Source: Candidatus Eiseniibacteriota bacterium
GTDB lineage: Bacteria > Eisenbacteria > RBG-16-71-46
Length of the DNA: 64,000 bases
Assembly: GCA_035691845.1 (NCBI GenBank)
Contig: DASSIN010000061.1
Location: forward strand, 2,950-66,949
Reading direction: 5' to 3'
Positions 25,186-43,313 of the stretch are shown piece after piece. The translations under genes and the position numbers were made by a program. A model generated the notes under the pieces. The model worked only from the letters and a program-made list of their open reading frames with translations, was not told where the DNA came from and did no database searches. How positions within the stretch are numbered: position 1 is the first letter of the stretch; each line of letters opens with the position of its first letter.

Positions 25186-26640
25186 TCACCGCCCGCGGAT
25201 GATGACCTTGAGCAGCGTGCCCGCGGCCACGCGATCGCCGGGCTGCACGTCGTTCAGGATGGCGTCGTCGTCGACGTCCGCCGCGCGCGAGCCCATCCGC
25301 TGCACCACGCTGGCGAAGCTGCCGGCGACCGGCGCCTCCTGCACGCGCACGCGGTCGGGGCGCACGTCGAGCAGCGCGGGATCGCTCACGTTGCGGAACG
25401 AGCGCATGGTGTCGAACTCGCGCTGATCGTCGTCGCCGCCATTCGATGCGCCCAGGATCTGGAACATGCGGTCGTCCTTGCGGATGAACGCTGCGGCCAG
25501 CGTGGCCTGCACCGGCTGGCCCTGCGCGTTCTGGCCGGCCACCTCGACGTGGCCGACCCACGCCGGCAGCCCGCCCACCGACTCGAGCTGGCCGCGGCGC
25601 GCCGTGATCTTGCCGGCCGCCTGGAGCTGATCCACGTACGCGCCCGGGGACGCGCCCTTCGCGTCCACGATCGACACCTGCATCGCGGCGCTCTGGTCGG
25701 ACTTGGCCGCCGTCACCGCCTGCTGGGTGTCCTGGTGCTGCCAGCCGGACGGGAACGTGACCTCGAACGCGAGCGAGGGGTTCACGTAGCGGTCGCCGGT
25801 GAAGTAGCCGTGGCGCGGATCGGACCCGAACACGATGTTGTTCATGCGCCGGACGTATGGCTCGCGCACCACCAGCAGCCCGCTCTTCCCCGCCGTCGCC
25901 TGCTGCGACAGCTGGGTGGTGCGCTGCTCGCGGTCGCCGGGGTCGGGATGGGTGGACAGGAACCCGGGCAGGCGCTGCCCGGCCTTGTCGCCGACGCGCT
26001 TCAGCATCGCGTAGGTGAGCGGCATCTGGCGCGAGTCGTAGCCGGCCTGGGTCGCGTACTGGACGCCCAGCTCGTCGGCCTCGGTCTCGTCCTGCCGGCT
26101 GTAGCGCAGGAACAGCAGCCCCAGCGCCTGCTGCGCCACCCCGCCGAACTGCCGGAACGTGGACGAGGTCGCCGATGCGATCCCGAGCCCGAGCCCGTAG
26201 AGCTGCTGCTGGGTCATCTGCTCGGCCGTGTGGCGGTGGGTGACGTGCCCGCACTCGTGCCCGAGCACGCCCGCGAGCTGCGCCTCGCTGTCCAGATACG
26301 GCAGGATCCCGCGCGTGACGAAGATGTAGCCGCCCGGCATCGCGAACGCGTTCACCGACGGATCGTCGATCAGCGTGAACGTCCAGCCGAGATCGGGCTG
26401 GTGCGACGCGTGCGCCACCTTCTGCCCCACCTGGTTCACGTACGCCTGCAGATCGGCGTCGTCGTACTTGCCGTACTGCTGGATGGTCTCGTTGTAGCCC
26501 TGCAGCCCGAGCGTCTTCTCCTGCCCCGGGCTCACGAGCGACAGCTCTCGGCGGCCGGTGACGGGATTGGTGGCGCACGCCGCCACGAACGCCAGCGCCG
26601 CCGCGATGGCGAGCGCCGCCCACCCTCTGGTCCCGAGCAT
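25186..26640 (-). CDS. M48-family zinc metallopeptidase lipoprotein (BepA/YfgC-like) with C-terminal extension
   Basis: Lipobox LAFVAAC. HExxH as HECGH plus a downstream ETEADE region. A strong GGGAGGA Shine-Dalgarno lies 5 nt before the ATG at 26638-26640. Confidence 0.7.
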   Translation of the reverse strand: MLGTRGWAALAIAAALAFVAACATNPVTGRRELSLVSPGQEKTLGLQGYNETIQQYGKYDDADLQAYVNQVGQKVAHASHQPDLGWTFTLIDDPSVNAFAMPGGYIFVTRGILPYLDSEAQLAGVLGHECGHVTHRHTAEQMTQQQLYGLGLGIASATSSTFRQFGGVAQQALGLLFLRYSRQDETEADELGVQYATQAGYDSRQMPLTYAMLKRVGDKAGQRLPGFLSTHPDPGDREQRTTQLSQQATAGKSGLLVVREPYVRRMNNIVFGSDPRHGYFTGDRYVNPSLAFEVTFPSGWQHQDTQQAVTAAKSDQSAAMQVSIVDAKGASPGAYVDQLQAAGKITARRGQLESVGGLPAWVGHVEVAGQNAQGQPVQATLAAAFIRKDDRMFQILGASNGGDDDQREFDTMRSFRNVSDPALLDVRPDRVRVQEAPVAGSFASVVQRMGSRAADVDDDAILNDVQPGDRVAAGTLLKVIIRGR

Positions 26641-27126
26641 CGATCCTCCCTGCGGCGTTGGCCGCGGTCTGGCGCGCCCTGGCCGGGACGGCTCGGCCTC
26701 GGTCGCGCGCGGGAATCCGGCCGCCACGAGCTCGGCGCGCACGCGTGCCTCGAGCCCGTAGGCCGGCAGCTCGCGGCGGTGGCGGCGGTAGCCGCGCCAC
26801 GCCAGCTCGAGCAGGTAGCTCCACGCCGTCATCCCGCTCCGGTACTGGCCGACGTGCACCAGCTCGTGCGCGAGCAGCGCGAGCCCGTCGGCCGTGCGCG
26901 TGTCGCACGCCCCGCGGCGGAAGTGGATGGTGCGCCCGCGCGTGAGCCCGATCACCTGGGAGAGCGGGGCCATGTACCACGGCAGCCCGTGCTCGCGGAT
27001 GCGCGCGGCCTCCAGGTCCGCGGCCGGGAGGTGCCGGGCGAGCGCCGCCTTCTCGGCCGCGGCGAGCGGCCGGCCGGCGCGGGAGCGCCGTGCCCGGGAT
27101 CGCGGAACTGCGTTAGGGTATGGCAT
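26641..27126 (-). CDS. DUF4157-like (HExxH, eCIS-core-type) domain ORF, in frame with the downstream M48 peptidase and lacking its own stop
   Basis: GLTRGRTIHFRRGACDTRTADGLALLAHELVHVGQY matches the DUF4157 core (grtI.f.....d...........LLaHELtHVvQ). There is no stop codon between it and the M48 ORF. The start was chosen at MPYPN (27124-27126). Confidence 0.35.
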
Positions 27127-27144
27127 GAGGGCGGAATCTAATCT

Positions 27145-27570
27145 ATGGTCTGCCGGATGTTCGAGCGCACCTTTCCCCGGGCCCTGGGCAGCCTGGAGCC
27201 GATGTTCGCGTTCGTCACCGAATTCGCGTCCGCGCAACGCCTTTCGCCCGCGGCCACCGGCGATCTGACGCTGATTGCCGAGGAGTTGTTCACGAACTGC
27301 GTCAAGTATGGCGGGGGCCCGGAGGGGGTCGCGATCGGCCTCGATCGCCAGGGGGCCGAGGTGACGCTCCGGCTCGTGGATCCCGGTGCCAGGCCGTTCG
27401 ACCCCACCGCCGCGCCGGCGGCCGACGTGGCGGCGCCGATCGAGGCCCGGCGGGCGGGCGGCCTGGGGATTCATCTGGTGCGCAGCATCGCCCGCGAGCT
27501 GCGCTATGCGCGCGAAGGCGGCGCCAACGTGGTGACCGCGGTGATTGGGACGGAGGGGGCGGAGGGCTGA
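27145..27570 (+). CDS. Anti-sigma regulatory factor (RsbW/SpoIIAB-like Ser/Thr kinase, HATPase_c)
   Basis: Bergerat-fold motifs: E..TNCVKYG (N-box) and GGLGIHLVRSIA (G-box). 141 aa. Confidence 0.6.
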   Translation: MVCRMFERTFPRALGSLEPMFAFVTEFASAQRLSPAATGDLTLIAEELFTNCVKYGGGPEGVAIGLDRQGAEVTLRLVDPGARPFDPTAAPAADVAAPIEARRAGGLGIHLVRSIARELRYAREGGANVVTAVIGTEGAEG

Positions 27571-27854
27571 TGTTCGAGCTGCGGGTGGAGGACGGGGGCC
27601 GGGTGGCCCTGCAGGGCCGGCTGGACGCCTCCCAGGCGGACGAGGCCGGCGAGCGGCTGGCGGCGCTGTCGGGCGCGGTCGTCCTCGACTGCGCCGCCCT
27701 CGATTACATTTCCAGCGCGGGCATCGGCGTGGTGGTGGAAACCTTCAAGCGCCTGCGGAATACGGGCGGCAGCCTCAAGATGGTCAACGTTCCCCCGCGC
27801 ATCCGCACGGTGTTCACCTATGCCGGGCTCGATCGCGTGCTTCCGATGGAGTGA
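27570..27854 (+). CDS. STAS-domain anti-sigma-factor antagonist (RsbV/SpoIIAA-like)
   Basis: LDCAALDYISSAGIGVVV contains the conserved phosphorylatable Ser in DxISSAG. 94 aa. Start adjoins the upstream stop. Confidence 0.65.
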   Translation: MFELRVEDGGRVALQGRLDASQADEAGERLAALSGAVVLDCAALDYISSAGIGVVVETFKRLRNTGGSLKMVNVPPRIRTVFTYAGLDRVLPME

Positions 27855-29228: not shown

Positions 29229-29285
29229 AGCCACAGGCGGCCCGGCGGTCTGACCCCGGTGCACGCAATACGGAGGGGAACGGAC

Positions 29286-30485
29286 ATGACTCGCAGGCAG
29301 CTGACGATCGTGGCAGGGATCCTGGTGCTCGCCACCGGGATCGGGTTCGTGGCCATGCGCGCGAACGGCCCGGTGCGTGACACGAGCGGCGCGATCGGCG
29401 CCGCCCAGCGCTACCACTCGGACCAGATCGCCGAGGGCGACGTGCAGCTCTCCGACGCCCAGGTGCAGGCGTTCCTGCAGAGCGACACGTTCCACAAGAT
29501 CGCGACCAATCCGGAATTCCGGAAGGCCGTGACGAGCGGCGAGTTCGCCAAGGCCGTGCAGGTGAACGGCACCGGGCTGATCTTCCAGGACACGCGCCTG
29601 ATCGCGCTGCTCAAGAGCGACACGTTCCAGAAGTTCGAGTCCGACGCCGGCCTGAGCCAGCTCGCCGCCAGCGACGCGTTCGCCCAGTTCGCGGCCGATG
29701 CCCAGCGCGATCCCTCGCTCGTGGACGCGATGAAGACGATCGTGGCCGACGACCACGCCCGGGCGATCGTGACCGAGACCGGGCTCGTGACGTTGCTGAA
29801 GAGCGACGTGGCGCGCCAGACGCTGCAGAGCGACAACTTCGCCAGGGTGATCGACTCGGGCGCGCTGCAGCGGCTGTCGCACGGCGACGTGTTCGAGAAG
29901 TTCATGGCCGACGTGGCCAGGCTCGGCACCACCGATACCGGGCTCCAGAACCTGATCGAGGCCAACCACCAGTACACCGAGCTGTCCAAGTCGACCGACT
30001 ACGCGGTGCTGGTGAAGGACGGACTCAACAAGCTGATCGACGGCGGGTTCGCCAAGCTCTACACGGCGGGCGACGTGGGCAGCCGCATCACCGACTACCA
30101 GGCGATCTGCAAGGACGCCCCGGCGCTGGCGGCGATCGCCAGCGACGCGTTCAGCCACTACCTGGCCGACGTGGCCAAGACGACCACCGACGCCTCGATG
30201 CAGATCGACGCGGCGAAGCAGCTCGTGGCCAACGACGCGTTCGAGAAGTTCGTGACCGACGCGGGCTTGAAGACGCTCGTCACCGACGCCGGCTTCGTCA
30301 CCGCGCTCCAGAACGACGCCGTGCAGCACGCGCTGACCGACGCCAACGTGCGCACCGTGATCACGGGCGACGACTTCCAGAAGCTCGTCACCAACCCCGA
30401 CTTCCTGAACCTGGCCTCCAAGCCCGAGTTCCTGGCCTCGGTGCGCGACGGCTCGCTGCAGAAGGCGGTGGAGTCGGCCGAGTAG
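29286..30485 (+). CDS. Membrane-anchored tandem-repeat protein (about 16 degenerate ~10-20-aa repeats of pattern L..SD.F.KF..DAGL)
   Basis: GGAGGGG Shine-Dalgarno 7 nt before the ATG. N-terminal TM LTIVAGILVLATGIGFVAM. Repeats such as SDTFHKIATNPEFRKAV, SDTFQKFESDAGL, SDAFAQFAADAQR, NDAFEKFVTDAGLKTLVTDAGFVTALQ. Confidence 0.5.
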   Translation: MTRRQLTIVAGILVLATGIGFVAMRANGPVRDTSGAIGAAQRYHSDQIAEGDVQLSDAQVQAFLQSDTFHKIATNPEFRKAVTSGEFAKAVQVNGTGLIFQDTRLIALLKSDTFQKFESDAGLSQLAASDAFAQFAADAQRDPSLVDAMKTIVADDHARAIVTETGLVTLLKSDVARQTLQSDNFARVIDSGALQRLSHGDVFEKFMADVARLGTTDTGLQNLIEANHQYTELSKSTDYAVLVKDGLNKLIDGGFAKLYTAGDVGSRITDYQAICKDAPALAAIASDAFSHYLADVAKTTTDASMQIDAAKQLVANDAFEKFVTDAGLKTLVTDAGFVTALQNDAVQHALTDANVRTVITGDDFQKLVTNPDFLNLASKPEFLASVRDGSLQKAVESAE

Positions 30486-30593
30486 CTTCGGTTATCGTCA
30501 CGGCACGCACGGGGATCCCGCGCCGGCGGGATCCCCGAAGCGTTTGTGCCGGAACCGCGTTCACGCCCACTCCCACTCCCGACGAGCCTCCCG

Positions 30594-33563
30594 ATGCGCA
30601 GCGCGATCCATGTCGTGTTGCTGGCGTGCGGCGCGCTGCTGCCCGCGGCCGCCCTGGCGGCCGGCGGCTTCCAGGAGATCGACGCCCCGGGTGTCAGGCT
30701 CATCTACCCCGCGCCGCTGCTCTCCTACCTCGCCCCCTACACCGCGCGCTGCTTCGAGAACGCCTACCGGTTCCACACGCGCTACTGGGGCTACGCGCCG
30801 TGGGACCGCGTCAACCTGATCCTGGACGACGCCGGCGACTACGGGAACGCCGGCGTCACGGCGAGCCCGCGCAACACCATGGTGGTGCACATCGCGCCGT
30901 CCAACTTCGTGTACGAGACGGGCCCCAGCAACGAGCGCATCAACTTCACCATGAACCACGAGATGACGCACGTGGTGGCGCTCGATCAGGCGAGCGGCTC
31001 CGACCGGCTGTTCCGGCGGCTGTTCCTGGGCAAGGTGCGCGAGACCGACGAGCACCCGGAGTCGATCCTGTACGGCTACCTGACCGTGCCGCGCCGCGCC
31101 GCGCCGCGCTGGTACCACGAGGGGATCGCGGTGTTCTGCGAGACGTGGATGGCGGGCGGCATCGGCCGCGCGCAGGGGCCGTACGACGAGATGGTGTTCC
31201 GCGCGATGGTGCGCGACTCGGCGCAGTTCTGGGATCCGCTCGGGCTCGAGTCCGAGGGCACGCGCGTGGACTTCCAGGTGGGCGTCAACTCCTACCTGTA
31301 CGGCACGCGCTTCATGGACTACCTGGCGTACCGCTACGGCCCCGACACGCTGCGCGCGTGGATCTCGCGCCAGCCCGGGAGCCGCAAGTACTTCTCGGCC
31401 CAGTTCCGCCACGTGTTCGGACGCTCGCTCGAGGACGTGTGGCACGACTGGGCCGCGTTCGAGCGCGACTTCCAGCATGCGAACCTCGATTCCATTCGCC
31501 GCTACCCGGTGACGCCGGCGCGCGACCTGTCGCGCGAGGCGCTGGGCTCGGTGTCGCGGGCGTACGTGGACTCCGCGCGGCGCGTGGTGTACGTGGCCGT
31601 GCAGGGACGCGGCTCGCTCGCGCACGTGGCGGCGATTCCATTGGACGGCGGGCCCTCCCGCACGCTGGCCGAGGTGAAGGGGCCGGCGCTCTACTTCGTG
31701 TGCGCGCTGGCGTGGGATCCCGATCGGCGCATGCTCTACTACACCGCCGACAACAACGACTGGCGCGACCTGATGAGCCTCGATCCCGCCACCGGCCGCA
31801 CGCGCCGGCTGATCCGGCAGGCGCGGATCGGCGACCTCGCGTTCGATCGCGCGGACAGGAGCCTGTGGGGCGTGCGCCACTTCAACGGTTACTCGACCGT
31901 GGTGCGGCTCGCGCCGCCCTACCGCGACTGGCACCAGGTGTGGACGCTCCCCTACGGGCGCGACCTGTACGACCTCGACATCTCGCCCGACGGGCGCTGG
32001 CTGTCGGCCTCGATGGCGGAGATCAGCGGGCGGCAGAGCCTGCGGCTCTACGATCTGGCGCGGCTCGCGGCCGGCGACACCAGCGCGCGCGAGCTGCACG
32101 ACTTCGGCGCCTCGATCCCGACCGGGTTCGTGTTCACGCCCGACGGCCGCGCGCTGTACGGCACCTCCTACTACACCGGCGTTTCCAACGTGTGGCGCTA
32201 CGACCTGGCGTCGGACTCGCTCGACATCGTGAGCAACGCCGAGACCGGGCTGTTCCGCCCGGTGCCGCTGGGCGGCGATTCCCTGCTGGCGTTCCGCTAC
32301 ACCGGCCAGGGGTTCGTGCCGGCGACGATCGCGGCGCGCCCGCTGCAGGACGTGAGCGCGGTCAGCTTCCTCGGCGCCGAGCTGGTGGAGCGCAGGCCCG
32401 AGCTCAAGAGCTGGAAGGTGCCATCGCCCGCGCACGTCGCGCTCGACTCCACCGCCACGCCGCACCCCTATCGCCCGCTCGCCAGCGTGCGGCCGGTCAA
32501 CGTGTATCCGGTGTTCGAGCGCTACAAGGCCTCGGACGGCGGCGGGCTGCGCGCCAGCTTCGCCGATCCGCTCGGGTTCCATCAGCTGGACGTGAGCGCC
32601 ACGTGGACGGGCGCCCAGGAGCTGCCGTCGGACCAGCGCTGGCACCTGGCGGCCGAGTACCGCCACGCCGGCTGGACCGCGAAGCTGCGCCGCGATCCGG
32701 CCTCGTTCTACGACCTGTTCGGGCCCGTGAAGACCAGCCGGCGCGGCAACAACGCCAGCCTGGCGTGGACCCGCACGCTGATCCGCGACACGCCGCGCAC
32801 GCTGGAGCTGGCCGCGTCCGCCAGCGGCTGGACCGGGCTCGAGCGGCTGCCCGACGCACAGAACGTGGCCACGCTGGCGGGGTTCGACAAGCTGGTGGCG
32901 AGCGAGGCCAGCCTGACGTGGAAGAACCTGCGCTCCTCGATCGGCGCCGCCGACTACGAGAAGGGCCAGATCGCGCGCGTCACGCTGTCGGCCAACACCG
33001 TGCGCCGCGTGCCCACGATCGGCGATGCGCGCTGGCGCACGTTCCCGATCGCCGAGGCGGCGCTCGACCTGGGCCAGCCGCTGCCCGTGCGCAACAGCTC
33101 GCTGTGGCTGCGCACCGCCATCGGCGGCGGCAACGGCGATCCGGCCGAGCCGTTCGCCACCACGTTCTTCGGCGGGTTCGGCAACAACGTGGTGGACCAC
33201 GCCGAGCCCAAACGCTTCCGCGACGTCACGAGCCTGCCCGGGTTCGAGATCGACCAGGTGGCGGGCCGCACCTACGGCCGCGCGCAGCTCGAGCTGAACC
33301 TGCCGCCGCTGCGCTTCGAGCGCGCCGGCGTGGTGCCGTTCTACGCCACCTGGGCGCGGCTGGCGCTGTTCACGACCGCGCTCGCCACCGATCCCGACCG
33401 CCCGGCCGAGCGCGCCCGCTACGGCGACGTGGGCGCGCAGGTGGACGTGCGCTTCCAGCTCCTGACCCAGCAGCCGCTGACGCTGTCGTTCGGGTTCGCG
33501 CGCGCCACGCAGCGCCACGGCCCGGGGCGCGACCAGGGCATGATCTCGCTCAAGATCCTGTGA
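30594..33563 (+). CDS. Secreted ~990-aa protein with a gluzincin-like HExxH...E motif and TolB-like beta-propeller repeats
   Basis: Signal peptide MRSAIHVVLLACGALLPAAALAAG. NHEMTHVV followed about 50 aa later by HEGIAVFCE. Repeats DISPDGRWLS and FTPDGRALYGTSY indicate propeller blades. The C-terminus is rich in beta-strand-like alternating residues. Confidence 0.5.
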   Translation: MRSAIHVVLLACGALLPAAALAAGGFQEIDAPGVRLIYPAPLLSYLAPYTARCFENAYRFHTRYWGYAPWDRVNLILDDAGDYGNAGVTASPRNTMVVHIAPSNFVYETGPSNERINFTMNHEMTHVVALDQASGSDRLFRRLFLGKVRETDEHPESILYGYLTVPRRAAPRWYHEGIAVFCETWMAGGIGRAQGPYDEMVFRAMVRDSAQFWDPLGLESEGTRVDFQVGVNSYLYGTRFMDYLAYRYGPDTLRAWISRQPGSRKYFSAQFRHVFGRSLEDVWHDWAAFERDFQHANLDSIRRYPVTPARDLSREALGSVSRAYVDSARRVVYVAVQGRGSLAHVAAIPLDGGPSRTLAEVKGPALYFVCALAWDPDRRMLYYTADNNDWRDLMSLDPATGRTRRLIRQARIGDLAFDRADRSLWGVRHFNGYSTVVRLAPPYRDWHQVWTLPYGRDLYDLDISPDGRWLSASMAEISGRQSLRLYDLARLAAGDTSARELHDFGASIPTGFVFTPDGRALYGTSYYTGVSNVWRYDLASDSLDIVSNAETGLFRPVPLGGDSLLAFRYTGQGFVPATIAARPLQDVSAVSFLGAELVERRPELKSWKVPSPAHVALDSTATPHPYRPLASVRPVNVYPVFERYKASDGGGLRASFADPLGFHQLDVSATWTGAQELPSDQRWHLAAEYRHAGWTAKLRRDPASFYDLFGPVKTSRRGNNASLAWTRTLIRDTPRTLELAASASGWTGLERLPDAQNVATLAGFDKLVASEASLTWKNLRSSIGAADYEKGQIARVTLSANTVRRVPTIGDARWRTFPIAEAALDLGQPLPVRNSSLWLRTAIGGGNGDPAEPFATTFFGGFGNNVVDHAEPKRFRDVTSLPGFEIDQVAGRTYGRAQLELNLPPLRFERAGVVPFYATWARLALFTTALATDPDRPAERARYGDVGAQVDVRFQLLTQQPLTLSFGFARATQRHGPGRDQGMISLKIL

Positions 33564-34612
33564 CCGCGCTCGTCCCGATCGTCGTCGGCCTGGGGCCGGT
33601 GATCGTGTTCCTCGCCGCGCTGGTGGCGATGGACAGCTATCGCCTGGTGCGGCGCCGCGACGTGGCCATGAGCCTGGCGTGGGGCGCGCTCGCCGCGCTG
33701 CTGGCGTGGTTCGCCAACGGCGCGCTGCTCGCGCGCGGGATGCCGCGGGCGGAGGTGACCGGCACGTTCGCGCCGCTGTTCGAGGAGGCGCTCAAGGCCG
33801 CGTGGGTGGTGGTGCTGCTCGCCACCGACCGCGTCGGGTTCCTGGTGGACGCCGGCATCCACGGATTCGCGATCGGCACCGGGTTCGCACTGGTCGAGAA
33901 CGCGAGCTACGCGCACGCGATCGGCTCGGGCCCGGTGCTGCTGTGGGTGGCGCGCGGGCTCGGCACCGCGGTGATGCACGGCGCCACCACCGCCGTGGTG
34001 GCGATCGCCGCCAAGGCGCTGGCCGAGCGCCACCACCGCCCCGCGTGGCTCGCGACGCTGGCCGGCTGGGCGCCGGCCGTGGTGGTGCACGCGCTGTTCA
34101 ACCGCTACACCGGCTCGCCGCTGGTCTCGACCACGGTGCTGCTCGTCACCATGCCGCTGCTGCTGCTGGGCGTGTTCGAGTGGAGCGAGCGCGCCACGCG
34201 CCGCTGGGTGGGCGCCGGGCTCGATCAGGACGCCGACGCGCTGGAGCAGATGCTGGGCGACACCGCCCACGACACGCCCGCCGGCCGCTACCTGGCCGAG
34301 ATCTCGCACCGGTTCCCGCCCGCCGCGGTGGCGGACATGTTCTGCCTGCTGCGCATCCACCTCGAGCTGTCGGTGCGCGCCAAGGCGCTGCTGATGGCGC
34401 GCGCCGCCGGCGTCGAGATCCCGCTCGACGACGACGAGCTGCGCGCCCAGTTCACCGAGCTCAAGTTCCTCGAACGCTCGATCGGCCGCGCCGGCCTGCT
34501 GGCCCTGGCCCCCCTGCGTCGCAAGAGCAGCCGCGACCTGTGGCAGCTATTGGTCCTGCAACGCGGCTCGCTGTCCGCCAGCTTGCCGCCCGCGCTGCGG
34601 CGGGATCAATAG
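33560..34612 (+). CDS. PrsW/CPBP-family intramembrane metalloprotease
   Basis: Polytopic. Motifs: FEEALKA (EExxK/R), GTGFALVENASYA (FxxxE), HGATTA and HALFNR (HxxxN). A GTG start overlaps the upstream stop. Confidence 0.55.
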   Translation: MTALVPIVVGLGPVIVFLAALVAMDSYRLVRRRDVAMSLAWGALAALLAWFANGALLARGMPRAEVTGTFAPLFEEALKAAWVVVLLATDRVGFLVDAGIHGFAIGTGFALVENASYAHAIGSGPVLLWVARGLGTAVMHGATTAVVAIAAKALAERHHRPAWLATLAGWAPAVVVHALFNRYTGSPLVSTTVLLVTMPLLLLGVFEWSERATRRWVGAGLDQDADALEQMLGDTAHDTPAGRYLAEISHRFPPAAVADMFCLLRIHLELSVRAKALLMARAAGVEIPLDDDELRAQFTELKFLERSIGRAGLLALAPLRRKSSRDLWQLLVLQRGSLSASLPPALRRDQ

Positions 34613-34657
34613 CACAGCGCGTAGGGAAGCCCCGGGGGATTCACGTCCCGGGCTCCC

Positions 34658-35344
34658 TCACCGCCGATAGAGCGCCTTGATCTGGCCCCAAGACTTCGGC
34701 AGTGAGGGAACGGTGTTCGTCTGCCAAGTCACGACATTCTGCCTGTTCGAGAACCTGATCGTCGTGACGCTGCCATCCGACAAGAGGAACACCATCTGTC
34801 GAAGCGTGATCGTCGCGTAATCACTGCATCCCCCGCATGCTCCAATCCCAAATGCGTTCGTATTCATGATCCGGAGCCGCGCACCAAGATATTCGACTCC
34901 GGAAGTCGGCTGAAGACCCCCGGAGAAATATCCCACGACACTGAGCTCCGCCTGATTGGGGAATCCAAGGGTCGAGTGGAAGAACTGCTGCGTGCTATCA
35001 GGTGTGACGCCCAAGTTCGCACATCCAGGTCCATCCGAGGGCAGGTATCCAGGGGCAACCGCTCCCGCCCTGCACAGGCCGCTGCCGACCATCCACCAGT
35101 CGGGCAGCAGGGAGTCGTTCGGAGTTTGAATGATAAGGTCGACGTTGTAGGCCACGATCGGTGCTTGAAAGGAGAACCCGGCGAAAGACGCCACAAGGTC
35201 TTCGCTCCCGACGTTCGTCGAACAGGCGAACGTCTTGCTCGTGACTCCGCCAACTCCGCAATCGTCCCACGCCAGATCGATGGCCTGCGCGCAGGCGGGC
35301 CCCGCCAGTAGCATGGTGACTGCAACTAGAAACCATCGGCCCAT
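34658..35344 (-). CDS. Secreted Cys-containing hypothetical protein
   Basis: Signal peptide MGRWFLVAVTMLLAGPACAQA. 228 aa with several Cys pairs. Lower local GC. Confidence 0.4.
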   Translation of the reverse strand: MGRWFLVAVTMLLAGPACAQAIDLAWDDCGVGGVTSKTFACSTNVGSEDLVASFAGFSFQAPIVAYNVDLIIQTPNDSLLPDWWMVGSGLCRAGAVAPGYLPSDGPGCANLGVTPDSTQQFFHSTLGFPNQAELSVVGYFSGGLQPTSGVEYLGARLRIMNTNAFGIGACGGCSDYATITLRQMVFLLSDGSVTTIRFSNRQNVVTWQTNTVPSLPKSWGQIKALYRR

Positions 35345-35358
35345 CCCGCTCCTCCTGC

Positions 35359-37106
35359 TCACCACAGGCTCTGCCACGCGGAGCCATCGTAGATCTGCGC
35401 CTTGCCCGTGGACGTATTGAAGATCGTGTCCCCCGCTGCCCAATTGGAGAACGCCGAGACGTCGGAAGCTGAAAGCCTCGGAAGCCTGATTCGCCACATG
35501 CTGCCGAGGAGAACGCTCTTACTCGACTGATCGCCCACGTCCAGCTCTTGCGAGGCGCCAAGTCCACCCACGACTCCCCCGCCCGACACGGTCGCTTCGC
35601 ACGAGCTTCCGATAACCACGTGGTGCCCGGAACTTGGCTTGGCGCTCTCGAAGATGGTGAGGTTCGCCACCTCAATGCTCTTCCCAGTCCCGGCGAACTC
35701 GACGTAGGTCGTCTGGCTTGAGCCCGCGCTCGAAAACAGGCATGACCTGACCGCAATCCCGATGTAGTTGCCCGAGTTCGACGTCGCCTTGATCACGGTT
35801 CCGGGTATGTCCTCGAACCAGCACCCTACGATCACGACTTGGTTCGTTTCGGTCAGGTGGATGGCTCCGCCATTGCCGGGGGTTCCCGCAAGCCCGGCTT
35901 GAAAGACACACCGCTCGAAGGCGAGGCCGTTGGCGGTTGTCGCGAGGACAGCGGAGTCGTTGAATCCCTGGAAGAAGCAGTCCTTGAAGTACTGGGTCGT
36001 TGAAGCCTCGGTCTTCGTGGCTGGTGACGGCGAGTCGATGGCCACGCAGCCCTTGCCAGGACTGTCGACATCGACTCTTTCGTAAACGCCCCATACCGAG
36101 AAATTGTTCTCGGGATTCGAGCTGTTGTTCCGCGTTCCATCAACGTGGACGCCATATCCCGCGCAGAAGGAGATCTTCACGTCCCTGACGTGAACGCCGA
36201 ATATGTCCGTGTCCACGCCCGATCCGACCTTGTCGCTCTTGATGCGTATTCCGGCGCCTTCGCCGCTGAGTTTGTTGAATTCGACCGGGCCAACAATGGA
36301 GAGGCGTTCGATCGTCTGGTTGATGCCCTGGATGACGATCAGGTCTGTGTCGACATCCATGTTGTTGGCGTAGTCAAGTATCGTTTGATCAACGCCATCG
36401 CCAAGAATAGTCACTGGCCTGTCGTCGGGCAGCAGCAACGGGGGCGTAAACGAGGGAGCAGTGGTGAGCCCGTAAACGCCGGCCGGTATATAGACTACCC
36501 CCCCCCGGTGGGAAGGGCGTCTATCGTGGCCTGAATGGTGGGGTAGTCGCGGGCGTTGACCCAGGCCACGCCGCCGCGCATCCAGCCGCCCTCGACATCC
36601 TCGTACAGGAGGTACGAGATGTAATCCGCGCCGAAGATGGTGACGATGATGTCGTAGCGCGTCTCGGCAACGTAGAATCCGATGTATCCCTCGCCATCGG
36701 CGATCGGCGCCGACGTCGCGGCCCACGTGCCGGTGGCCTCGTTGTACACAGTCGGGAACGAATCGGTCCGGACAAGACGTGAGCCACGCTCCAGCGGGAT
36801 GGCGTCCGTCCCCGTGTTGTGGATCGTGACCGTGGGTCCGGAGGCCAGGTTCATCGCCGTGATCGTCATCGTGTTGGTGGAGCTATCCGTGCCGTTCTGC
36901 ACGGTACTTCCGACCGCGAGTCGCCCGGTGTCGTAGACGTCCACGGCGACCGCTGCCCCGCCGGAGATCGTGACTGCCGTGCGAACGGTCGCGCCGAGAT
37001 AGTGAGGAACCACTGGCGCGCCCCCGACCGGGACGAGGGTCGAGTCTGAGGTGGATGCCTCGGCGAGGACCCTGGTTTCGTAGTGTCGCAATGTCAGCTT
37101 CGGCAT
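35359..37106 (-). pseudogene. Pectate-lyase-fold (Pectate_lyase_3 / tailspike-like right-handed beta-helix) gene interrupted by a -1 frameshift at a G9 homopolymer
   Basis: The upstream ORF (36495..37106) ends ...YPTIQATIDALPTGGG then stop. The downstream ORF (to 35359) continues VVYIPAGVYGLTT...TILGDG with beta-helix repeats. Ten G instead of nine would fuse them into IDALPTGGGVVYIPAGVY, the canonical N-terminus of this fold. Confidence 0.6.
36497..36505. repeat. Homopolymeric C9 (G9 on the coding strand) tract at the frameshift site
   Basis: Nine consecutive C read directly from the sequence, flanked by TA and GG. Confidence 0.9.
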
Positions 37107-37276
37107 GACAGCCCTTTGGCCGGCGCCGCGCCGGGGTCGGGCGCGGTGGTCATTCGGTCAAGAGCATACCGCTTCACGGGCCCCGGGCTTCAGTCGTTTC
37201 TTCCGTCTGGACCCGAGACTCGCCGGAAGCTGCAGCTACGCGGTTGCCAAGGCGTTATGGCGAGCCCGAGGCCCGA

Positions 37277-38728
37277 TCAATAGCGCGGGACGGCGGGGTC
37301 GATTTCGCGGGACCAGGCGTCGATGCCGCCTTGCAGGTTCTTGAGCTTGCGGAAGCCGGATTGCTTCAGGAACTCCAGCGCGCGCTGGCTCCTCTGGCCG
37401 TGGTGGCAGTAGAGCACGATCTCGCGGCTGGAATCGAGCTCGGAGACGCGCTCGGGCAGGGAGTTGAGCGGCATCAGCGTGGCGCCCTCGATGCGCGCGA
37501 TCTGCCACTCGTGCGGCTCCCGCACGTCCACCAGCATCGGCGGGTCGCCCGCGCGCTGCTGGTCGGCCAGCCCGCGCACGGAGATGTCGTCGGCGCCGGC
37601 GTGCGCATCGGCGGGCACGATGCCGCAGAACTGCTGGTAGTCGATCAGCGCCGTCACGCTCGGATGCTCGCCGCACACCGGGCACTCGGGGTCCTTGCGC
37701 AGCTTGAGCTCGCGGAACCGCATCGCCAGCGCGTCGAACAGCAGCAGCCGGCCGATCAGGGGCTCGCCCGCGCCGAGCAGCAGCTTCAGCGTCTCGATCG
37801 CCTGCACCACGCCGATCACGCCCGGCAGCACGCCGAGCACGCCGCCCTCGGCGCAGGACGGCACGAGCCCGGGCGGCGGCGGATCGGGGTACAGGCAGCG
37901 GTAGCAGGGCCCGCGCTTGGCGTCGAACACGCTGGCCTGGCCCTCGAACCGGAAGATGCTGCCGTACACGTTGGGTTTGCCGAGCAGCACGCACGCGTCG
38001 TTCACGAGGTAGCGCGTCGGGAAGTTGTCGGTGCCATCCACGATCACGTCGTAGCGCGCGAGGATGTCGAGCGCGTTCTCGCTCGAAAGCCGCACGGCGT
38101 GGCGCTCGACCTGCACATTGGGATTGATGTCGCGGATGCGGTCGGCGGCGGAATCGAGCTTGGGACGGCCGACGTCCGCGGTGCCGTGCAGGATCTGGCG
38201 CTGCAGGTTGCTCTCGTCCACCACGTCGAAGTCCACGATGCCCATGCGGCCGACGCCGGCGGCGGCGAGGTACAGCGCGAGCGGCGAGCCGAGCCCGCCG
38301 GCGCCCACGCACAGCACGCTCGAGGCCTTGAGCTTCCGCTGCCCGGCGAGCCCGACCTCGGGCAGGATCAGGTGCCGGCCGTAACGCAGCAGCTCCTCCT
38401 GCGACATCGGCGGCAGGCCGTCCTCGCCCGTCGCCCACGCCGGCGCGCGGCGGCCGCCGGCGATGCTGGGCACGATCGCGACGTGGTCTTCGGCCGAGAC
38501 CGGCGTCGCCTCGCGCGCGAGGTGGCGGATGTCCTCGTCGTTCACGTACACGTTGACGAACCGCCGCAGCCTGCCGTCGGCGTCGTACAGGTGCGCTCGC
38601 AGCGCCGGGTGCGCGGCCACCAGCTTCGCCAGCGCCTCGCCCGCCGTCGCCGCCTCGACCTCGATCGTGGCGAGCCCGCCGGCATAGGCGCGCAGCGGCG
38701 TCGGAATGTGAATGCGGATCGTGCTCAC
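37277..38728 (-). CDS. Fusion protein: ThiS/MoaD/CysO-like sulfur carrier (ending Gly-Gly), then MoeB/ThiF-type E1 adenylyltransferase, then C-terminal rhodanese (MoeZ-like)
   Basis: GTG start with GAGGAG 8 nt upstream. A beta-grasp domain ends ...IVPSIAGG, a 16-aa linker follows, then MSQEELLRYGRHLILPEVGLAGQRKL...VGAGGLGSP (E1 Rossmann), CxxC pairs (CYRC, CPVC) and the rhodanese active site LYCHHGQRS. Confidence 0.75.
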   Translation of the reverse strand: MSTIRIHIPTPLRAYAGGLATIEVEAATAGEALAKLVAAHPALRAHLYDADGRLRRFVNVYVNDEDIRHLAREATPVSAEDHVAIVPSIAGGRRAPAWATGEDGLPPMSQEELLRYGRHLILPEVGLAGQRKLKASSVLCVGAGGLGSPLALYLAAAGVGRMGIVDFDVVDESNLQRQILHGTADVGRPKLDSAADRIRDINPNVQVERHAVRLSSENALDILARYDVIVDGTDNFPTRYLVNDACVLLGKPNVYGSIFRFEGQASVFDAKRGPCYRCLYPDPPPPGLVPSCAEGGVLGVLPGVIGVVQAIETLKLLLGAGEPLIGRLLLFDALAMRFRELKLRKDPECPVCGEHPSVTALIDYQQFCGIVPADAHAGADDISVRGLADQQRAGDPPMLVDVREPHEWQIARIEGATLMPLNSLPERVSELDSSREIVLYCHHGQRSQRALEFLKQSGFRKLKNLQGGIDAWSREIDPAVPRY

Positions 38729-38733
38729 GAACG

Positions 38734-39198
38734 CTACTCCTCTGCGGCGGGATCGGCGGCGGCGCGCGCCGCGTGCGGCGCCACGATCGCCACCTCGACC
38801 TCGTCGAACGCGGCGCGGTCGTCGCGCAGCCGCCAGGCGGTGGTGGCCTCCGCACGCCCGCGCACGACGCCCACGATCACGTAGTCATACCACGGCCAGG
38901 CGTGCTCGAGATCGAACGCCGAGGGGCGCGCCGGGTGGTCGGGGTGCGAGTGGAAGAACGCCACCACGTCCAGCGCTTGCGCGCGCGCGCGGCGTTCGGC
39001 TTCCAGCACCTGCCCGGGCGCGATCAGGTAGCGGTTCGCGCGCGAATCCTCACGCGTGTTCTCGAACGCCATCACCTCGGCCACCTGGCGCGCGCCGTCG
39101 CCGCGTCCCAGCAGCACGCCGCAGCCCTCATCGGGATACGCGCGCTCGAGCGCGGCGTGGATCTGCGCGAGCTGATCGCGCGACAGCTCGAGCCTCAT
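38734..39198 (-). CDS. mec: JAMM/MPN+ metalloprotease (Mec+-like CysO-cysteine peptidase)
   Basis: JAMM motif E...HSHPDHPARPSAFD (HxHx7Sx2D). 154 aa. ATGA overlap with the cysM stop. Confidence 0.7.
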   Translation of the reverse strand: MRLELSRDQLAQIHAALERAYPDEGCGVLLGRGDGARQVAEVMAFENTREDSRANRYLIAPGQVLEAERRARAQALDVVAFFHSHPDHPARPSAFDLEHAWPWYDYVIVGVVRGRAEATTAWRLRDDRAAFDEVEVAIVAPHAARAAADPAAEE

Positions 39199-40136
39199 GC
39201 CGCGCCCTCGGCGTCCCACAGCGGATCGCTCAGGTAGCGCTCGGCGCCGTCCGGCAGCACGCACACCACCACGCCCGACTCGAGTCCGCGCGCCACGCGC
39301 GCGGCGGCCGCCACCGCCGCGCCGGCCGACCAGCCGAGCAGCAGCCCCGCGCGCGCCTGCGCCTTCACCGTGGCGATCGCCTCCTCGCTCGCGATCGCGA
39401 GCGTGCGGCGATGGACGGAAGGATCGTAGATCGGCGGCACGAGCGCGCTCGGCAGATGCTTCAAGCCTTCGAGCGCGTGCAGCGGGCCGTCCGGCTGCAC
39501 GGCGATCACCTCGATCGCGGGATCGAATTCGCGCAGCCGCCGCGCGCATCCCACCAGCGTGCCCGAGGTGCCGATGCCGGCGACCAGGTGCGTGATGCGG
39601 CCCTCGGTCTGCTCCCAGATCTCGACCGCGGTGCCGTGATAGTGCGCGAGCCAGTTGGCGGGGTTGGCGTACTGGTCGGCGTGGAAGTAGCGCTGCGGGT
39701 GGCGGCGCGCCAGCCCGCGCGCCGCGCGGATCGCGCCGTCGGTGCCCTCCATCGGGTCGGTCGGCACGATCTCGGCGCCCAACGCCGCGATCAACCGGCG
39801 GCGCTCGACGTTGGCGTTCCCCGGCAGGCACAGCGTGACCCCGATGCCGCGCCGGGCGCCGATCCAGGCGTAGGCGATCCCGGTGTTGCCGGAGGTGGCA
39901 TCCAGCAGTCGCCGGCCGCCGGCGAGCGAGCCGTCGCGCTCGGCTGCCTGGATGATGGCCCACGCCGCGCGGTCCTTGACCGAGCCACCCGGGTTCGCGC
40001 TCTCCAGCTTCCCGAGCACGGCCACCCCGTCGGGCAGATCGAGGCCCGCGATCGGCACGAGCGGCGTGTGCCCGATGCGGGCGGTCAGGTCGGGAATGGC
40101 CAGATCCGTGGCCTCGGGGGCGTGGTGCCGGTGCAT
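39195..40136 (-). CDS. cysM: Cysteine synthase CysM-like (PLP-dependent, thiocarboxylate-utilising type)
   Basis: PLP-binding region SVKDRAAWAII, glycine-rich loop DATSGNTGIAYAWIGA. 313 aa. Confidence 0.8.
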   Translation of the reverse strand: MHRHHAPEATDLAIPDLTARIGHTPLVPIAGLDLPDGVAVLGKLESANPGGSVKDRAAWAIIQAAERDGSLAGGRRLLDATSGNTGIAYAWIGARRGIGVTLCLPGNANVERRRLIAALGAEIVPTDPMEGTDGAIRAARGLARRHPQRYFHADQYANPANWLAHYHGTAVEIWEQTEGRITHLVAGIGTSGTLVGCARRLREFDPAIEVIAVQPDGPLHALEGLKHLPSALVPPIYDPSVHRRTLAIASEEAIATVKAQARAGLLLGWSAGAAVAAAARVARGLESGVVVCVLPDGAERYLSDPLWDAEGAA

Positions 40137-41307: not shown

Positions 41308-43313
41308 CCACGCCCGTCGCGACGGCGCGCGATCTCGATCAGCTCGCGGTCAACACCATCCGGTTCCTGGCCGTGGACGCGGTCGAGAAGGCGAACAGCG
41401 GGCATCCCGGCATGCCGATGGGCATGGCCGACGTCGCGTTCGTGCTGTGGACGCGGTTCATGCGCTACCAGCCGCACGATCCGGCATGGCCCGACCGCGA
41501 CCGGTTCGTGCTGTCGGCGGGCCACGGCTCGATGCTGCTGTACGCGATGCTGCACCTGACCGGCTACGACCTGCCGATGGAGGAGCTGCAGCGCTTCCGC
41601 CAGCTCGGCAGCAGGACGCCCGGGCATCCCGAGTACGGCCACACCGTCGGCGTCGAGACCACCACCGGCCCGCTGGGGCAGGGGTTCGGCAACGGCGTGG
41701 GGCTGGCGCTGGCCGCGAGGATGCTGCGCGCGCGCTTCGATGCCACCGACTTCTCGCCCGTGTCGTGGCGCGTGTTCGGGATCGTGAGCGACGGCGATCT
41801 GATGGAGGGCGTGTCGTCCGAGGCCGCCTCGCTCGCCGGCCACTGGGGGCTCGGCAACCTGATCTACGTCTACGACCGCAACAGCATCACCATCGAGGGC
41901 AGCACCGAGCTGGCGTTCACCGAGAACGTGGGCGCGCGGTTCGAGGCATACGACTGGCACGTGCAGCACATCGACGCGCACGACCGCGGCGAGGTGACGC
42001 ACGCGCTCGAGGCGGCCGTGGCCGAGACCCAGCGTCCGAGCCTGATCGTGGCCACGAGCCACATCGGCTACGGCGCGCCCCACAAGCAGGACACGCGCGA
42101 GGCGCACGGCGAGGCGCTCGGCGCCGACGAGGTGAAGGCCACCAAGCGCGCGCTCGGCTGGCCCGAAAGCCCGACGTTCCTGGTGCCGGACGAGGTGCGC
42201 GGGCTGTTCCGCGCGCGCGCCGAGGCGGTGCGGCCCGCGTACGAGGCGTGGCAGCGCGAGTTCCGCGCGTGGCGGCAGCGTTACCCGGCGCAGGCACAAC
42301 TGTGGGACGCGCACGTCGAGCGGCGCGTGCCGGACGACATCCTGGCGCAGCTCGTGGCCGCCGCGCCGCGCGGCCCGGGCGCCACGCGCGCGCACGGACA
42401 CGCCGTGCTGCAGCGCGCCGCGCACGCGGTGCCGGCGCTGGTGGGCGGCGCCGGCGATCTCGAGCCATCGACCAAGACCGCGATCGACGACTCGGATTCG
42501 ATCGCGCGCGACACGTTCCTGGGCCGCAACCTGCACTTCGGCATCCGCGAGCACGCCATGGTCGCGATCTGCAACGGGCTCGCGCTGTCGGGGGGGTTCA
42601 TCCCCTACGGCAGCTCGTTCCTCGTGTTCACGGACTATTGCCGGCCCTCGCTCCGGCTGTCGGCGCTGATGGGGGTCCAGGCGATCTGGGTGCTGACGCA
42701 CGACAGCGTGTTCCTGGGCGAGGACGGACCCACGCACCAGCCGATCGAGCAGCTCACCTCGCTGCGCGCGATGCCCAACATGCTGGTGATCCGCCCCGCC
42801 GACGGCGTCGAGACCGCGGGCGCGTGGGGCGTGGCGCTGGCGCGGCGCGACGGCCCCACCCTGCTCGCCCTCACGCGCCAGAACCTGCCCGCGCTCGAGC
42901 GCGGCCCGGAGTTCGATCCGGCGTGGCTCGCGCGCGGCGGCTACGTGCTGCGCGACGTCGGGAACCCCACGGCCGTGCTGATCGCCACCGGCTCCGAGGT
43001 ATCGCTTGCGATACAGGCCGCGGACCTGCTCGCGCAGCGGGGCGTCGCGCTGCGCGTCGTCAGCATGCCCGCCCCCCGACGCTTCCTGGAACAGGAGCGT
43101 TCGTGGCGGGACCTGGTGCTCCCGGCCGGAATCCGGCGCATCTCAGTGGAAGCCGCGGCAACCTGGGGCTGGCGCGAGATCGTGGGCGATGACGGGCTCG
43201 CGATCGGCATCGACCGCTATGGCGTGTCGGCGCCGCTGGCGCAGGTGCAGCAGGCATTCGGATTCACGCCCGAGGCCTTGGCCGGGCGCATCCGGGACTG
43301 GCTGGCAGGCTGA
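41304..43313 (+). CDS. tkt: Transketolase
   Basis: GGAGGAA Shine-Dalgarno. TPP-binding motifs SGHPGMPMGMAD and GDGDLMEG. 669 aa. ATGA overlap with the glk stop. Confidence 0.9.
   Translation: MTTPVATARDLDQLAVNTIRFLAVDAVEKANSGHPGMPMGMADVAFVLWTRFMRYQPHDPAWPDRDRFVLSAGHGSMLLYAMLHLTGYDLPMEELQRFRQLGSRTPGHPEYGHTVGVETTTGPLGQGFGNGVGLALAARMLRARFDATDFSPVSWRVFGIVSDGDLMEGVSSEAASLAGHWGLGNLIYVYDRNSITIEGSTELAFTENVGARFEAYDWHVQHIDAHDRGEVTHALEAAVAETQRPSLIVATSHIGYGAPHKQDTREAHGEALGADEVKATKRALGWPESPTFLVPDEVRGLFRARAEAVRPAYEAWQREFRAWRQRYPAQAQLWDAHVERRVPDDILAQLVAAAPRGPGATRAHGHAVLQRAAHAVPALVGGAGDLEPSTKTAIDDSDSIARDTFLGRNLHFGIREHAMVAICNGLALSGGFIPYGSSFLVFTDYCRPSLRLSALMGVQAIWVLTHDSVFLGEDGPTHQPIEQLTSLRAMPNMLVIRPADGVETAGAWGVALARRDGPTLLALTRQNLPALERGPEFDPAWLARGGYVLRDVGNPTAVLIATGSEVSLAIQAADLLAQRGVALRVVSMPAPRRFLEQERSWRDLVLPAGIRRISVEAAATWGWREIVGDDGLAIGIDRYGVSAPLAQVQQAFGFTPEALAGRIRDWLAG

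Follow-up and report, generated by a model that had tools for sequence, protein, structure and literature searches.

A run of nine G residues (G9) that splits a tailspike-family beta-helix gene of Candidatus Eisenbacteria is probably a slipped-strand contingency locus, that is, a homopolymeric ON/OFF switch in a chromosomal gene of phage derivation, here in its OFF state. The gene lies in a 64-kb stretch of high-GC DNA (71%), called the window below, which belongs to a soil or groundwater metagenome-assembled genome (MAG) of an uncultured organism listed at NCBI as 'MAG TPA: Candidatus Eisenbacteria bacterium'. On the strength of the comparisons between assembled loci described here, we give this reading a probability of about 0.6. 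An earlier note on this DNA had proposed a homopolymer sequencing error, a recent pseudogene or a phase-variable locus, and the third of these is favoured because the run is one G shorter in a close relative, because both halves of the gene show a ratio of nonsynonymous to synonymous divergence (dN/dS) of about 0.1, and because a second homopolymer in the same gene is found both ON and OFF in other lineages. The run and the parts of the gene that it separates are the following:

35359..37106, minus strand: the whole interrupted gene, which with ten G's (G10) would encode a 582-aa tailspike-family beta-helix protein.
36498..36506, minus strand: the homopolymer G9 (C9 on the plus strand), covering Gly201-203 as GGG GGG GGG; OFF at G9, ON at G10 or G7.
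36495..37106, minus strand: the upstream open reading frame (ORF), 203 aa and a TAG, made up of an all-beta N domain (1-180) followed by the helix that caps the beta-helix; NCBI hypothetical protein HET7224495.1.
35359..36498, minus strand: the downstream part, which supplies residues 204-582 once the frame is restored, comprising a right-handed beta-helix and a small C-terminal domain, with no credible start codon of its own.

On the coding strand the junction reads ...CTT CCC ACC GGG GGG GGG TAG TCT ATA TAC CGG... The run described in the earlier note is real, but it had been placed one nucleotide off, at 36497-36505; likewise, the upstream ORF does end in ALPTGGG (in full, IDALPTGGG), but the TAG stands directly after the run and not within it. 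The beta-helix frame resumes with the run's final G (GTA GTC TAT ATA CCG GCC, giving VVYIPA(G)) and continues to a stop at 35359, and it corresponds to a -1 ribosomal shift, which is equal to the addition of one G. The claim that one added G creates a 582-aa ORF was borne out, the product reading IDALPTGGGVVYIPAGVY, and deletion of two G's (G7) gives a product of 581 aa. In the whole window G9 is the only homopolymer of at least 8, the other C and G runs reaching at most 6 and 7, respectively; the second-longest homopolymer is a G7 at 42590-42596. Elsewhere in the window all 18 stretches of at least three Gly or at least three Pro had runs of 4 nt or less, Gly3 being nearly always written as GGC GGC GGC, in a count that covered about 12,100 codons of confident window genes, and GGG makes up 20% of the Gly codons in the interrupted gene and in the confident genes alike. 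The genome normally avoids the kind of run found in the interrupted gene; the existence of the run is mildly unusual, and its placement is the non-random point. G9 is present in two assemblies made with two assemblers, the NCBI MAG and a 4844-nt Logan assembly contig of SRR25158202 (L001), the latter being identical to window positions 32909-37752 save for one single-nucleotide polymorphism in 4844 nt.

The restored protein belongs to a large family in which the two parts form one polypeptide. A search with a profile built from the restored protein and two homologues against a library of 1.84 billion proteins (E<=1e-3) returned 687 relatives, many of them 550-630 aa long and matching the profile over positions 1-571 in a single stretch. 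Members that match end to end include P0003, P0005-8, P0010, P0015 and P0025, and the uninterrupted architecture is, judging by these alignments, the family norm. Under the G10 reading the junction aligns gap-free with P0003 (LPPIGGVVYIPAG) and P0006 (VPSGGGTVFLPAG), and the aligned junctions are:

window (G10 reading): IDALPTGGGVVYIPAG
P0003: VDSLPPIGGVVYIPAG
P0006: IDAVPSGGGTVFLPAG
P0048: VDAVPSTGGTVYIPAG

Short members that end near profile position 204 (P0103, P0105, P0124 and others) were considered as further cases of frameshift and rejected, the junction being in frame and these proteins being contig-end truncations or members of another beta-helix subtype. The family is highly modular: P0009 (776 aa) consists of two tandem cap, beta-helix and C-terminal modules with no N domain, and in P0042, P0097 and P0110 the N domain is joined to a different beta-helix subtype. 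A scan of GTDB genomes gave only distant matches confined to the motif and did not include the window's own genome, which is not among the species representatives; a metagenome scan recovered L002, one of the contigs described below, again together with two weak matches and nothing else, and no relative was found in the viral_contigs set scanned with the family alignment.

An AlphaFold2 monomer model computed from a 60-sequence alignment, which replaced a poor run on a 3-sequence alignment with a mean predicted local distance difference test score (pLDDT) of 58, reached a pLDDT of 91.2 and a predicted template modelling score (pTM) of 0.79 for the restored protein. The model places the N domain at residues 1-180, the cap helix at 191-196 and a right-handed beta-helix from 203 to about 535, followed by the small C-terminal domain, and the frameshift point is predicted to fall between the cap helix and the first strand (203-206). 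Foldseek matched the model with probability 1.0 to GH87, AlgE4, GH28 and tailspike structures, and the family profile matched PDB entries with E values of 1.8e-14 for 7chu and 1.6e-13 for AlgE4, as well as GH87 and the Sf6 tailspike, these profile matches beginning at profile positions of about 181-185 and spanning the junction. The earlier description of the product as a tailspike-like protein with a pectate-lyase fold was thus upheld by the model, by Foldseek, by the PDB matches and by relatives in SU10-like phage tail modules. The N-terminal Pectate_lyase_3 motif also claimed for it is only partly present: its GA.GDG.TDDT portion is missing, and the PF12708 match, at residues 189-263 and so across the junction, scored 16.9 bits against a Pfam gathering cutoff of 27, PF13229 likewise falling short with 23.7 bits against 25.9. 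Among 60 family members PF13229 was found in 34 and PF12708 in 17 (E<=0.01). A profile of the N domain found no match in PDB (best E 0.23), a PHROGs search with the restored protein gave nothing useful (best E 0.17), and searches of PADLOC and NCBIfam assigned no defence or named family to the beta-helix protein or to the partner gene product described below.

A close relative, L011 (a 3527-nt Logan contig of SRR23012440), is syntenic with the window over a ThiF-type gene, the cassette formed by the interrupted gene and its downstream partner gene, and PrsW. At the same codon L011 has a run of eight G's (G8), which is out of frame, and its ON state would be G7 or G10. The earlier note had proposed looking in orthologues for G10 or an interrupted tract; when this was done, distant homologues proved to be runless (GGC/GGA/GGT), and this one close relative was out of frame at G8. 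Divergence between the window and L011, given as nucleotide identity, synonymous divergence (dS) and dN/dS, is distributed as follows:

flanks (ThiF-type gene and PrsW): 94-95% identity, dS 0.16, dN/dS 0.13-0.19
N half of the gene: 90% identity, dS 0.36, dN/dS 0.10
C half of the gene: 78% identity, dS 1.18, dN/dS 0.089
partner gene: 71% identity, dS 1.57, dN/dS 0.13

The one-nucleotide difference in run length is the sole indel in 1740 nt of coding sequence. Since dN/dS is 0.10 in one half of the gene and 0.089 in the other, both halves were functional for nearly all of the divergence between the window and L011, and the out-of-frame states of the two loci must be recent and independent of each other.

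Other homologues have no G run at the junction codons:

L002 and L020: AGC GGC GGA
L003: ATT GGC GGA
L012: GGC GGC GGC
L013: GGC GGT

A second run site was found in the same gene in other Eisenbacteria cassettes, in the form of poly-C over a poly-Pro stretch of the N domain:

L016: C9 (GAC CCC CCC CCA CCA CCG), in frame, 577 aa; no other run of at least 8 in 17.2 kb.
L020: C8 at the same site as in L016, in frame, 585 aa.
L017, L018 and L019: C9 (GAT CCG CCC CCC CCC T ACG), out of frame, 109 + 512 aa; ON would be C8 or C11.

L016 is a 17.2-kb locus with housekeeping flanks from the NCBI Eisenbacteria MAG GCA_016223045.1 and encodes P0007 (MBI5709540.1), which is 33% identical to P0012; L020 is from ENA assembly ERZ1292635; and L017, L018 and L019 are Logan contigs of SRR24032790/801/802 that are identical to one another over 2660 nt, so that their out-of-frame C9 is agreed by three separate sequencing runs. 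Runs of at least 7 are absent from the phage members of the family and from L002 and L003. The gene of L012, encoding the intact P0006, has no run; its contig starts with a C12 (1-12), 260 nt upstream of the gene start, and the assembly may have broken there at another, possibly promoter-proximal, homopolymer. Altogether, five cassette lineages carry a G/C run of at least 8 in this gene, at two sites, two of them being ON and three OFF. In both long loci (64 kb and 17 kb) the sole run of at least 8 lies inside this gene, an outcome with a chance of about 0.027 x 0.10 if each locus is taken to have one run. Such recurrence across assembled loci is the strongest argument that the runs belong to the biology of the gene and are not accidents or errors.

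If the locus works as a contingency switch, the G9 would be a hypermutable simple-sequence repeat in a functional gene, to which replication slippage adds, or from which it removes, G's. With G10 or G7 the full 582- or 581-aa protein, consisting of N domain, beta-helix and C-terminal domain, would be made, and with G8, G9 or G11 translation would stop at the run or soon beyond it, so that the assembled genotype is OFF and would yield nothing more than the N-terminal 203 aa. Expression of the partner gene may also be reduced in this state by polarity, because the partner starts only 14 nt past the beta-helix stop. The hallmarks of contingency genes are found here, namely a run of at least 8 in an ORF, toggling of the frame, a conserved position with differences in length and an otherwise intact gene under purifying selection, and we infer reversible switching at high frequency within populations, with selective upkeep of the run.

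Several points weigh against this interpretation. The G run is carried by two lineages only, those of the window and L011, both are OFF, and no G10 or G7 allele was found among the loci compared. A G/C run of at least 9 arose somewhere in 64 kb in 7-10% of trials in composition-matched Markov simulations of order 3-5, and poly-Pro in a high-GC genome could give C runs without selection. The beta-helix protein has no signal peptide, so its description in the earlier note as 'surface or secreted' is unproven, and the surface-antigen rationale of contingency genes is not established for it. The case for switching is also built from assembled sequences; G-runs are hard to size accurately in databases (PMC9187656), and the NCBI MAG and the Logan contig with G9 may share reads.

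The main rival is non-adaptive recent gene loss, by which an accidental hot spot would have undergone independent inactivations (G10 to G9 in the window, a change to G8 in L011, the C run in L017) on the way to decay, with no selected switching. That three of the five lineages with a run are OFF, every G-run carrier among them, is what it would predict; dN/dS, being averaged over the whole divergence, is blind to a recent relaxation, and the cassette, which sits in a small islet of foreign composition, might be dispensable. However, all three inactivations would have had to come about through run length and without any other lesion, no other indel is seen in 1740 nt at 78-90% nucleotide identity, and the runs have lasted over a dS of 0.36-1.2 in a genome whose other Gly3 and Pro3 stretches contain no such runs. 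A G9, moreover, reverts as readily as it forms, so the lesion is mechanistically reversible, and we regard plain loss as unlikely. A miscounted homopolymer, the true run being G10 in an intact gene and G9 an artefact of sequencing, polymerase chain reaction (PCR) or assembly, has a small chance of being correct. G-runs are prone to error in library PCR and Illumina sequencing and their lengths in databases can differ from the real distribution (PMC9187656), the two G9 assemblies may share their reads, and the contigs involved come from low-coverage metagenomes (L002 and L020 have the labels cov_5 and cov_3). Against this, two assemblers give G9, the G8 of L011 would require a 2-nt error, the out-of-frame C9 is identical in three separate sequencing runs, and errors would have to strike the run of this gene repeatedly and always leave it out of frame.

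Two further explanations leave the DNA as it is. Recoding, by RNA polymerase slippage or by -1 frameshifting on G GGG GGG before the TAG, would give a fixed ratio of short to long product. A homopolymer of 9 nt is long enough to cover the RNA:DNA hybrid, slippage during transcription is established for long A/T runs (PMC1088944), and tRNA-Gly would re-pair perfectly after a -1 slip, the next codon being a stop. We nevertheless hold recoding to be improbable: G9 needs a -1 shift and the G8 of L011 a +1 (or -2) shift, so that no direction is conserved; folding of the 98 nt that follow the run is no stronger than that of shuffled sequences (z -0.49 in the window, +0.11 in L011); other members of the family lack both run and slippery site; and the OFF products differ, the window's having 203 aa, that of L011 227 aa and that of L017 about 50 residues that are genuine. 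A programmed -1 frameshift was rejected as a designed mechanism because no downstream structure is shared and the direction of shift differs between G9 and G8; some low-level slippage may leak through the run. We give hardly any weight to the possibility that the N-domain protein and the beta-helix protein are two genuine separate genes, as NCBI has them in listing two ordinary proteins, HET7224495.1 (203 aa) and HET7224494.1 (359 aa), and as the existence of family members without the N domain, starting near profile position 165, might suggest. The split would cut the beta-helix cap in a model of pLDDT 91, and homologues read through the junction. In-frame starts after the run in the window have no Shine-Dalgarno sequence, that of the annotated 359-aa protein being a TTG which cuts off conserved residues 204-223, and in L011 a TAG lying 7 codons ahead of the run closes the frame of the beta-helix, the earliest later start in that frame being at about residue 275; that the beta-helix is translated on its own was rejected on these grounds. 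Switching by slippage in the DNA thus remains the explanation that we prefer.

The site of the run also appears to be a boundary of recombination. When window positions 36408-36596 are compared with L011 positions 1020-1207, the 90 nt ahead of the run contain 1 mismatch and divergence begins directly after the run, the proportion of synonymous differences (pS) rising from 0.115 over codons 151-210 to at least 0.58 from codon 211. In a second pair, L016 and L020 (L020:131-839), the N domains share 86% nucleotide identity up to about codon 209 and nothing in common beyond, and the C half of L020 is 48% identical to that of the window. Two independent pairs thus diverge at the junction between N domain and beta-helix, the site of the G run, which marks it as a recurrent recombination boundary, and the beta-helix and the partner seem to be exchanged there as a unit. 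From position 50 onwards L002 matches L020 at 99.4% identity, and the 49 nt before that show no relationship to it (L002 1-49 versus L020 719-767). Those 49 nt contain GGAGGA-N6-GTG, which is not in the beta-helix frame, and a TGA at 30-32, which is; the contig either has a chimeric end here or represents an allele without an N domain. A wider interpretation, which we offer tentatively and consider possible rather than likely, is that of a domesticated phage tail-spike cassette (beta-helix and secreted partner) that is doubly diversified, by phase variation at two independently evolved runs and by module swapping with its breakpoint at the poly-G, so that the run would be both switch and module junction in a switchable and exchangeable surface-polysaccharide or phage-interaction system of an uncultured soil phylum.

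The phage kinship of the gene is seen in the neighbourhoods of its relatives. P0048, P0027 and P0033 are encoded in tightly packed phage structural modules with SU10_portal, SU10_MCP and SU10_adaptor, and in L013, L014 and L015 SU10_portal, SU10_MCP or SU10_adaptor is found beside the family gene (the L013 neighbours had no PHROGs match). In these modules the family gene follows directly after the adaptor gene or one gene later; in phage SU10 the tail-fibre genes occupy this place, and their products attach to the adaptor and nozzle (PMC9509320). On the basis of this position we take the family to be one of tail fibres/tailspikes, in which the N-terminal module is conserved and the C-terminal ones are exchangeable. 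The window protein shares this joining of modules with the tailspikes of SU10-like (Kuravirus-type) podophages, belongs to the same family by profile (P0027, P0033 and P0048 at E 1e-42 to 1e-55), and has in common with them and with depolymerases and other enzymes of the pectate-lyase fold (PDB 7chu, 6nw9, 2vbe; AlgE4 2pyg; GH87 6k0m) a right-handed beta-helix. Unlike them, the window copy lies outside any phage module, between PrsW and ThiS-ThiF-rhodanese genes with CysM-like and glucokinase genes farther on; it is paired with a secreted 228-aa partner; and its N domain has no PDB sequence match. A prophage context was rejected, Pfam on eight flanking genes having pointed to housekeeping functions. 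Fold and family suggest that the window protein is a polysaccharide-binding or -cleaving beta-helix of phage tail-spike ancestry, whose target is possibly the cell's own surface polysaccharide, or which may have a role in phage interactions.

The cassette and its immediate surroundings comprise the following features:

34658..35344, minus strand: the partner gene, 228 aa, with a Sec-type signal peptide, the C-terminus ...SWGQIKALYRR and a strong AGGAGGA Shine-Dalgarno sequence.
34613..37276: a low-GC islet of 2.6 kb containing the two cassette genes only, with a GC content of 0.56-0.67 against 0.70-0.75 around it.
33563-34612, plus strand: PrsW, one flank of the islet.
37277-38728, minus strand: a ThiS-ThiF-rhodanese triple fusion of 483 aa, the other flank of the islet.
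39198-40136, minus strand: a PALP (CysM-like) enzyme on the ThiF side, where a glucokinase gene also lies farther along.

The partner and the beta-helix gene are probably co-transcribed; a promoter scan found nothing. The nearest relatives of the window protein are encoded in cassettes of this kind. A homologous partner stands directly downstream of the family gene in L002 (1266-1958), L011 (2268-2957), L012 (2064-2762) and L016 (7291-8016), where its sequence was read, and in L017-19 and L020 a gene of 230-237 aa at the same place is known by position and length only. The partner family, of 228-241 aa, has a C-terminal WGQI[KQ][AG][LM]Y[RL] in the window and L001, L011, L002, L012 and L016, and conserved cysteines in the pattern LAWD.CG..G...K.F.C.TN...CGGC; it had no match in Pfam, PHROGs, NCBIfam or PADLOC, and it is absent from the phage loci of the beta-helix family. 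Farther out, the ThiS-ThiF-rhodanese fusion together with the PALP enzyme suggests a pathway cluster of the sulfur-carrier cysteine or thiocarboxylate type, and on the PrsW side there are two genes without a Pfam match, then an M48 peptidase and a molybdopterin oxidoreductase. Two large genes upstream of PrsW (418 and 1025 aa, 29229-33560, plus strand) have a GC content at third codon positions of 0.96-0.97 and no Pfam match at E<=1e-5, and an 852-aa protein (25189-27744, minus strand) combines eCIS_core (PF13699, residues 227-304) with a peptidase M48 domain (433-607).

Among known systems, the pilus genes of Bifidobacterium breve UCC2003 (bbr_0113a/b, bbr_1889a/b; PMC9187656) likewise belong to a high-GC, non-pathogenic organism and have an intragenic G-run in the first gene of an operon that splits it into two annotated ORFs; there, a run of about 10-12 G's sets the expression of the fusion protein and of the downstream genes and varies in length between strains. 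Heterogeneity in B. breve was measured within cultures by Maximum Depth Sequencing, whereas the window locus is known from assemblies, and the B. breve product is a surface pilin with signal peptide and LPXTG, in contrast to a tailspike-family beta-helix without signal peptide from an uncultured organism. With the poly-G/C loci of Neisseria, Haemophilus and Campylobacter (PMC5084427, PMC6321876) the window gene shares a run of at least 8 in an ORF, ON/OFF by frame, a run conserved and variable in length, and intact flanking coding sequence; those genomes, however, hold tens of such loci, and Campylobacter has no mismatch repair, whereas the window has one run of at least 8 in 64 kb of a 71% GC genome. 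The runs of Mycobacterium tuberculosis (the 7C of glpK, bioRxiv 10.1101/717272, and ESX-1-associated runs, PMC11898584) share with the window high GC, a small number of runs and frameshifts in a G/C run of a conserved gene, but they concern a metabolic or a secretion gene in a clinical setting with reversion demonstrated, and the window gene derives from a phage and belongs to a MAG from soil or groundwater.

None of the papers listed by a literature search that paired phase-variation terms with 'metagenome-assembled' used that word. Homopolymer phase variation is textbook knowledge for host-adapted pathogens and a few commensals, and the case described here is one of a known mechanism in an unusual organism and gene. 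Current MAG annotation does not reveal such switches, the gene being listed at NCBI as a pair of ordinary proteins. If heterogeneity of run length is seen in reads, contingency loci would operate in a free-living, very high-GC, uncultured lineage, and their signature would provide a recipe for finding others in MAGs: a sole long run in a run-avoiding genome, differing in length between near-identical strains, in a gene of low dN/dS. A chromosomal tailspike-family cassette with a secreted partner would then be a trait worth switching, probably at the cell surface or in interactions with phages.

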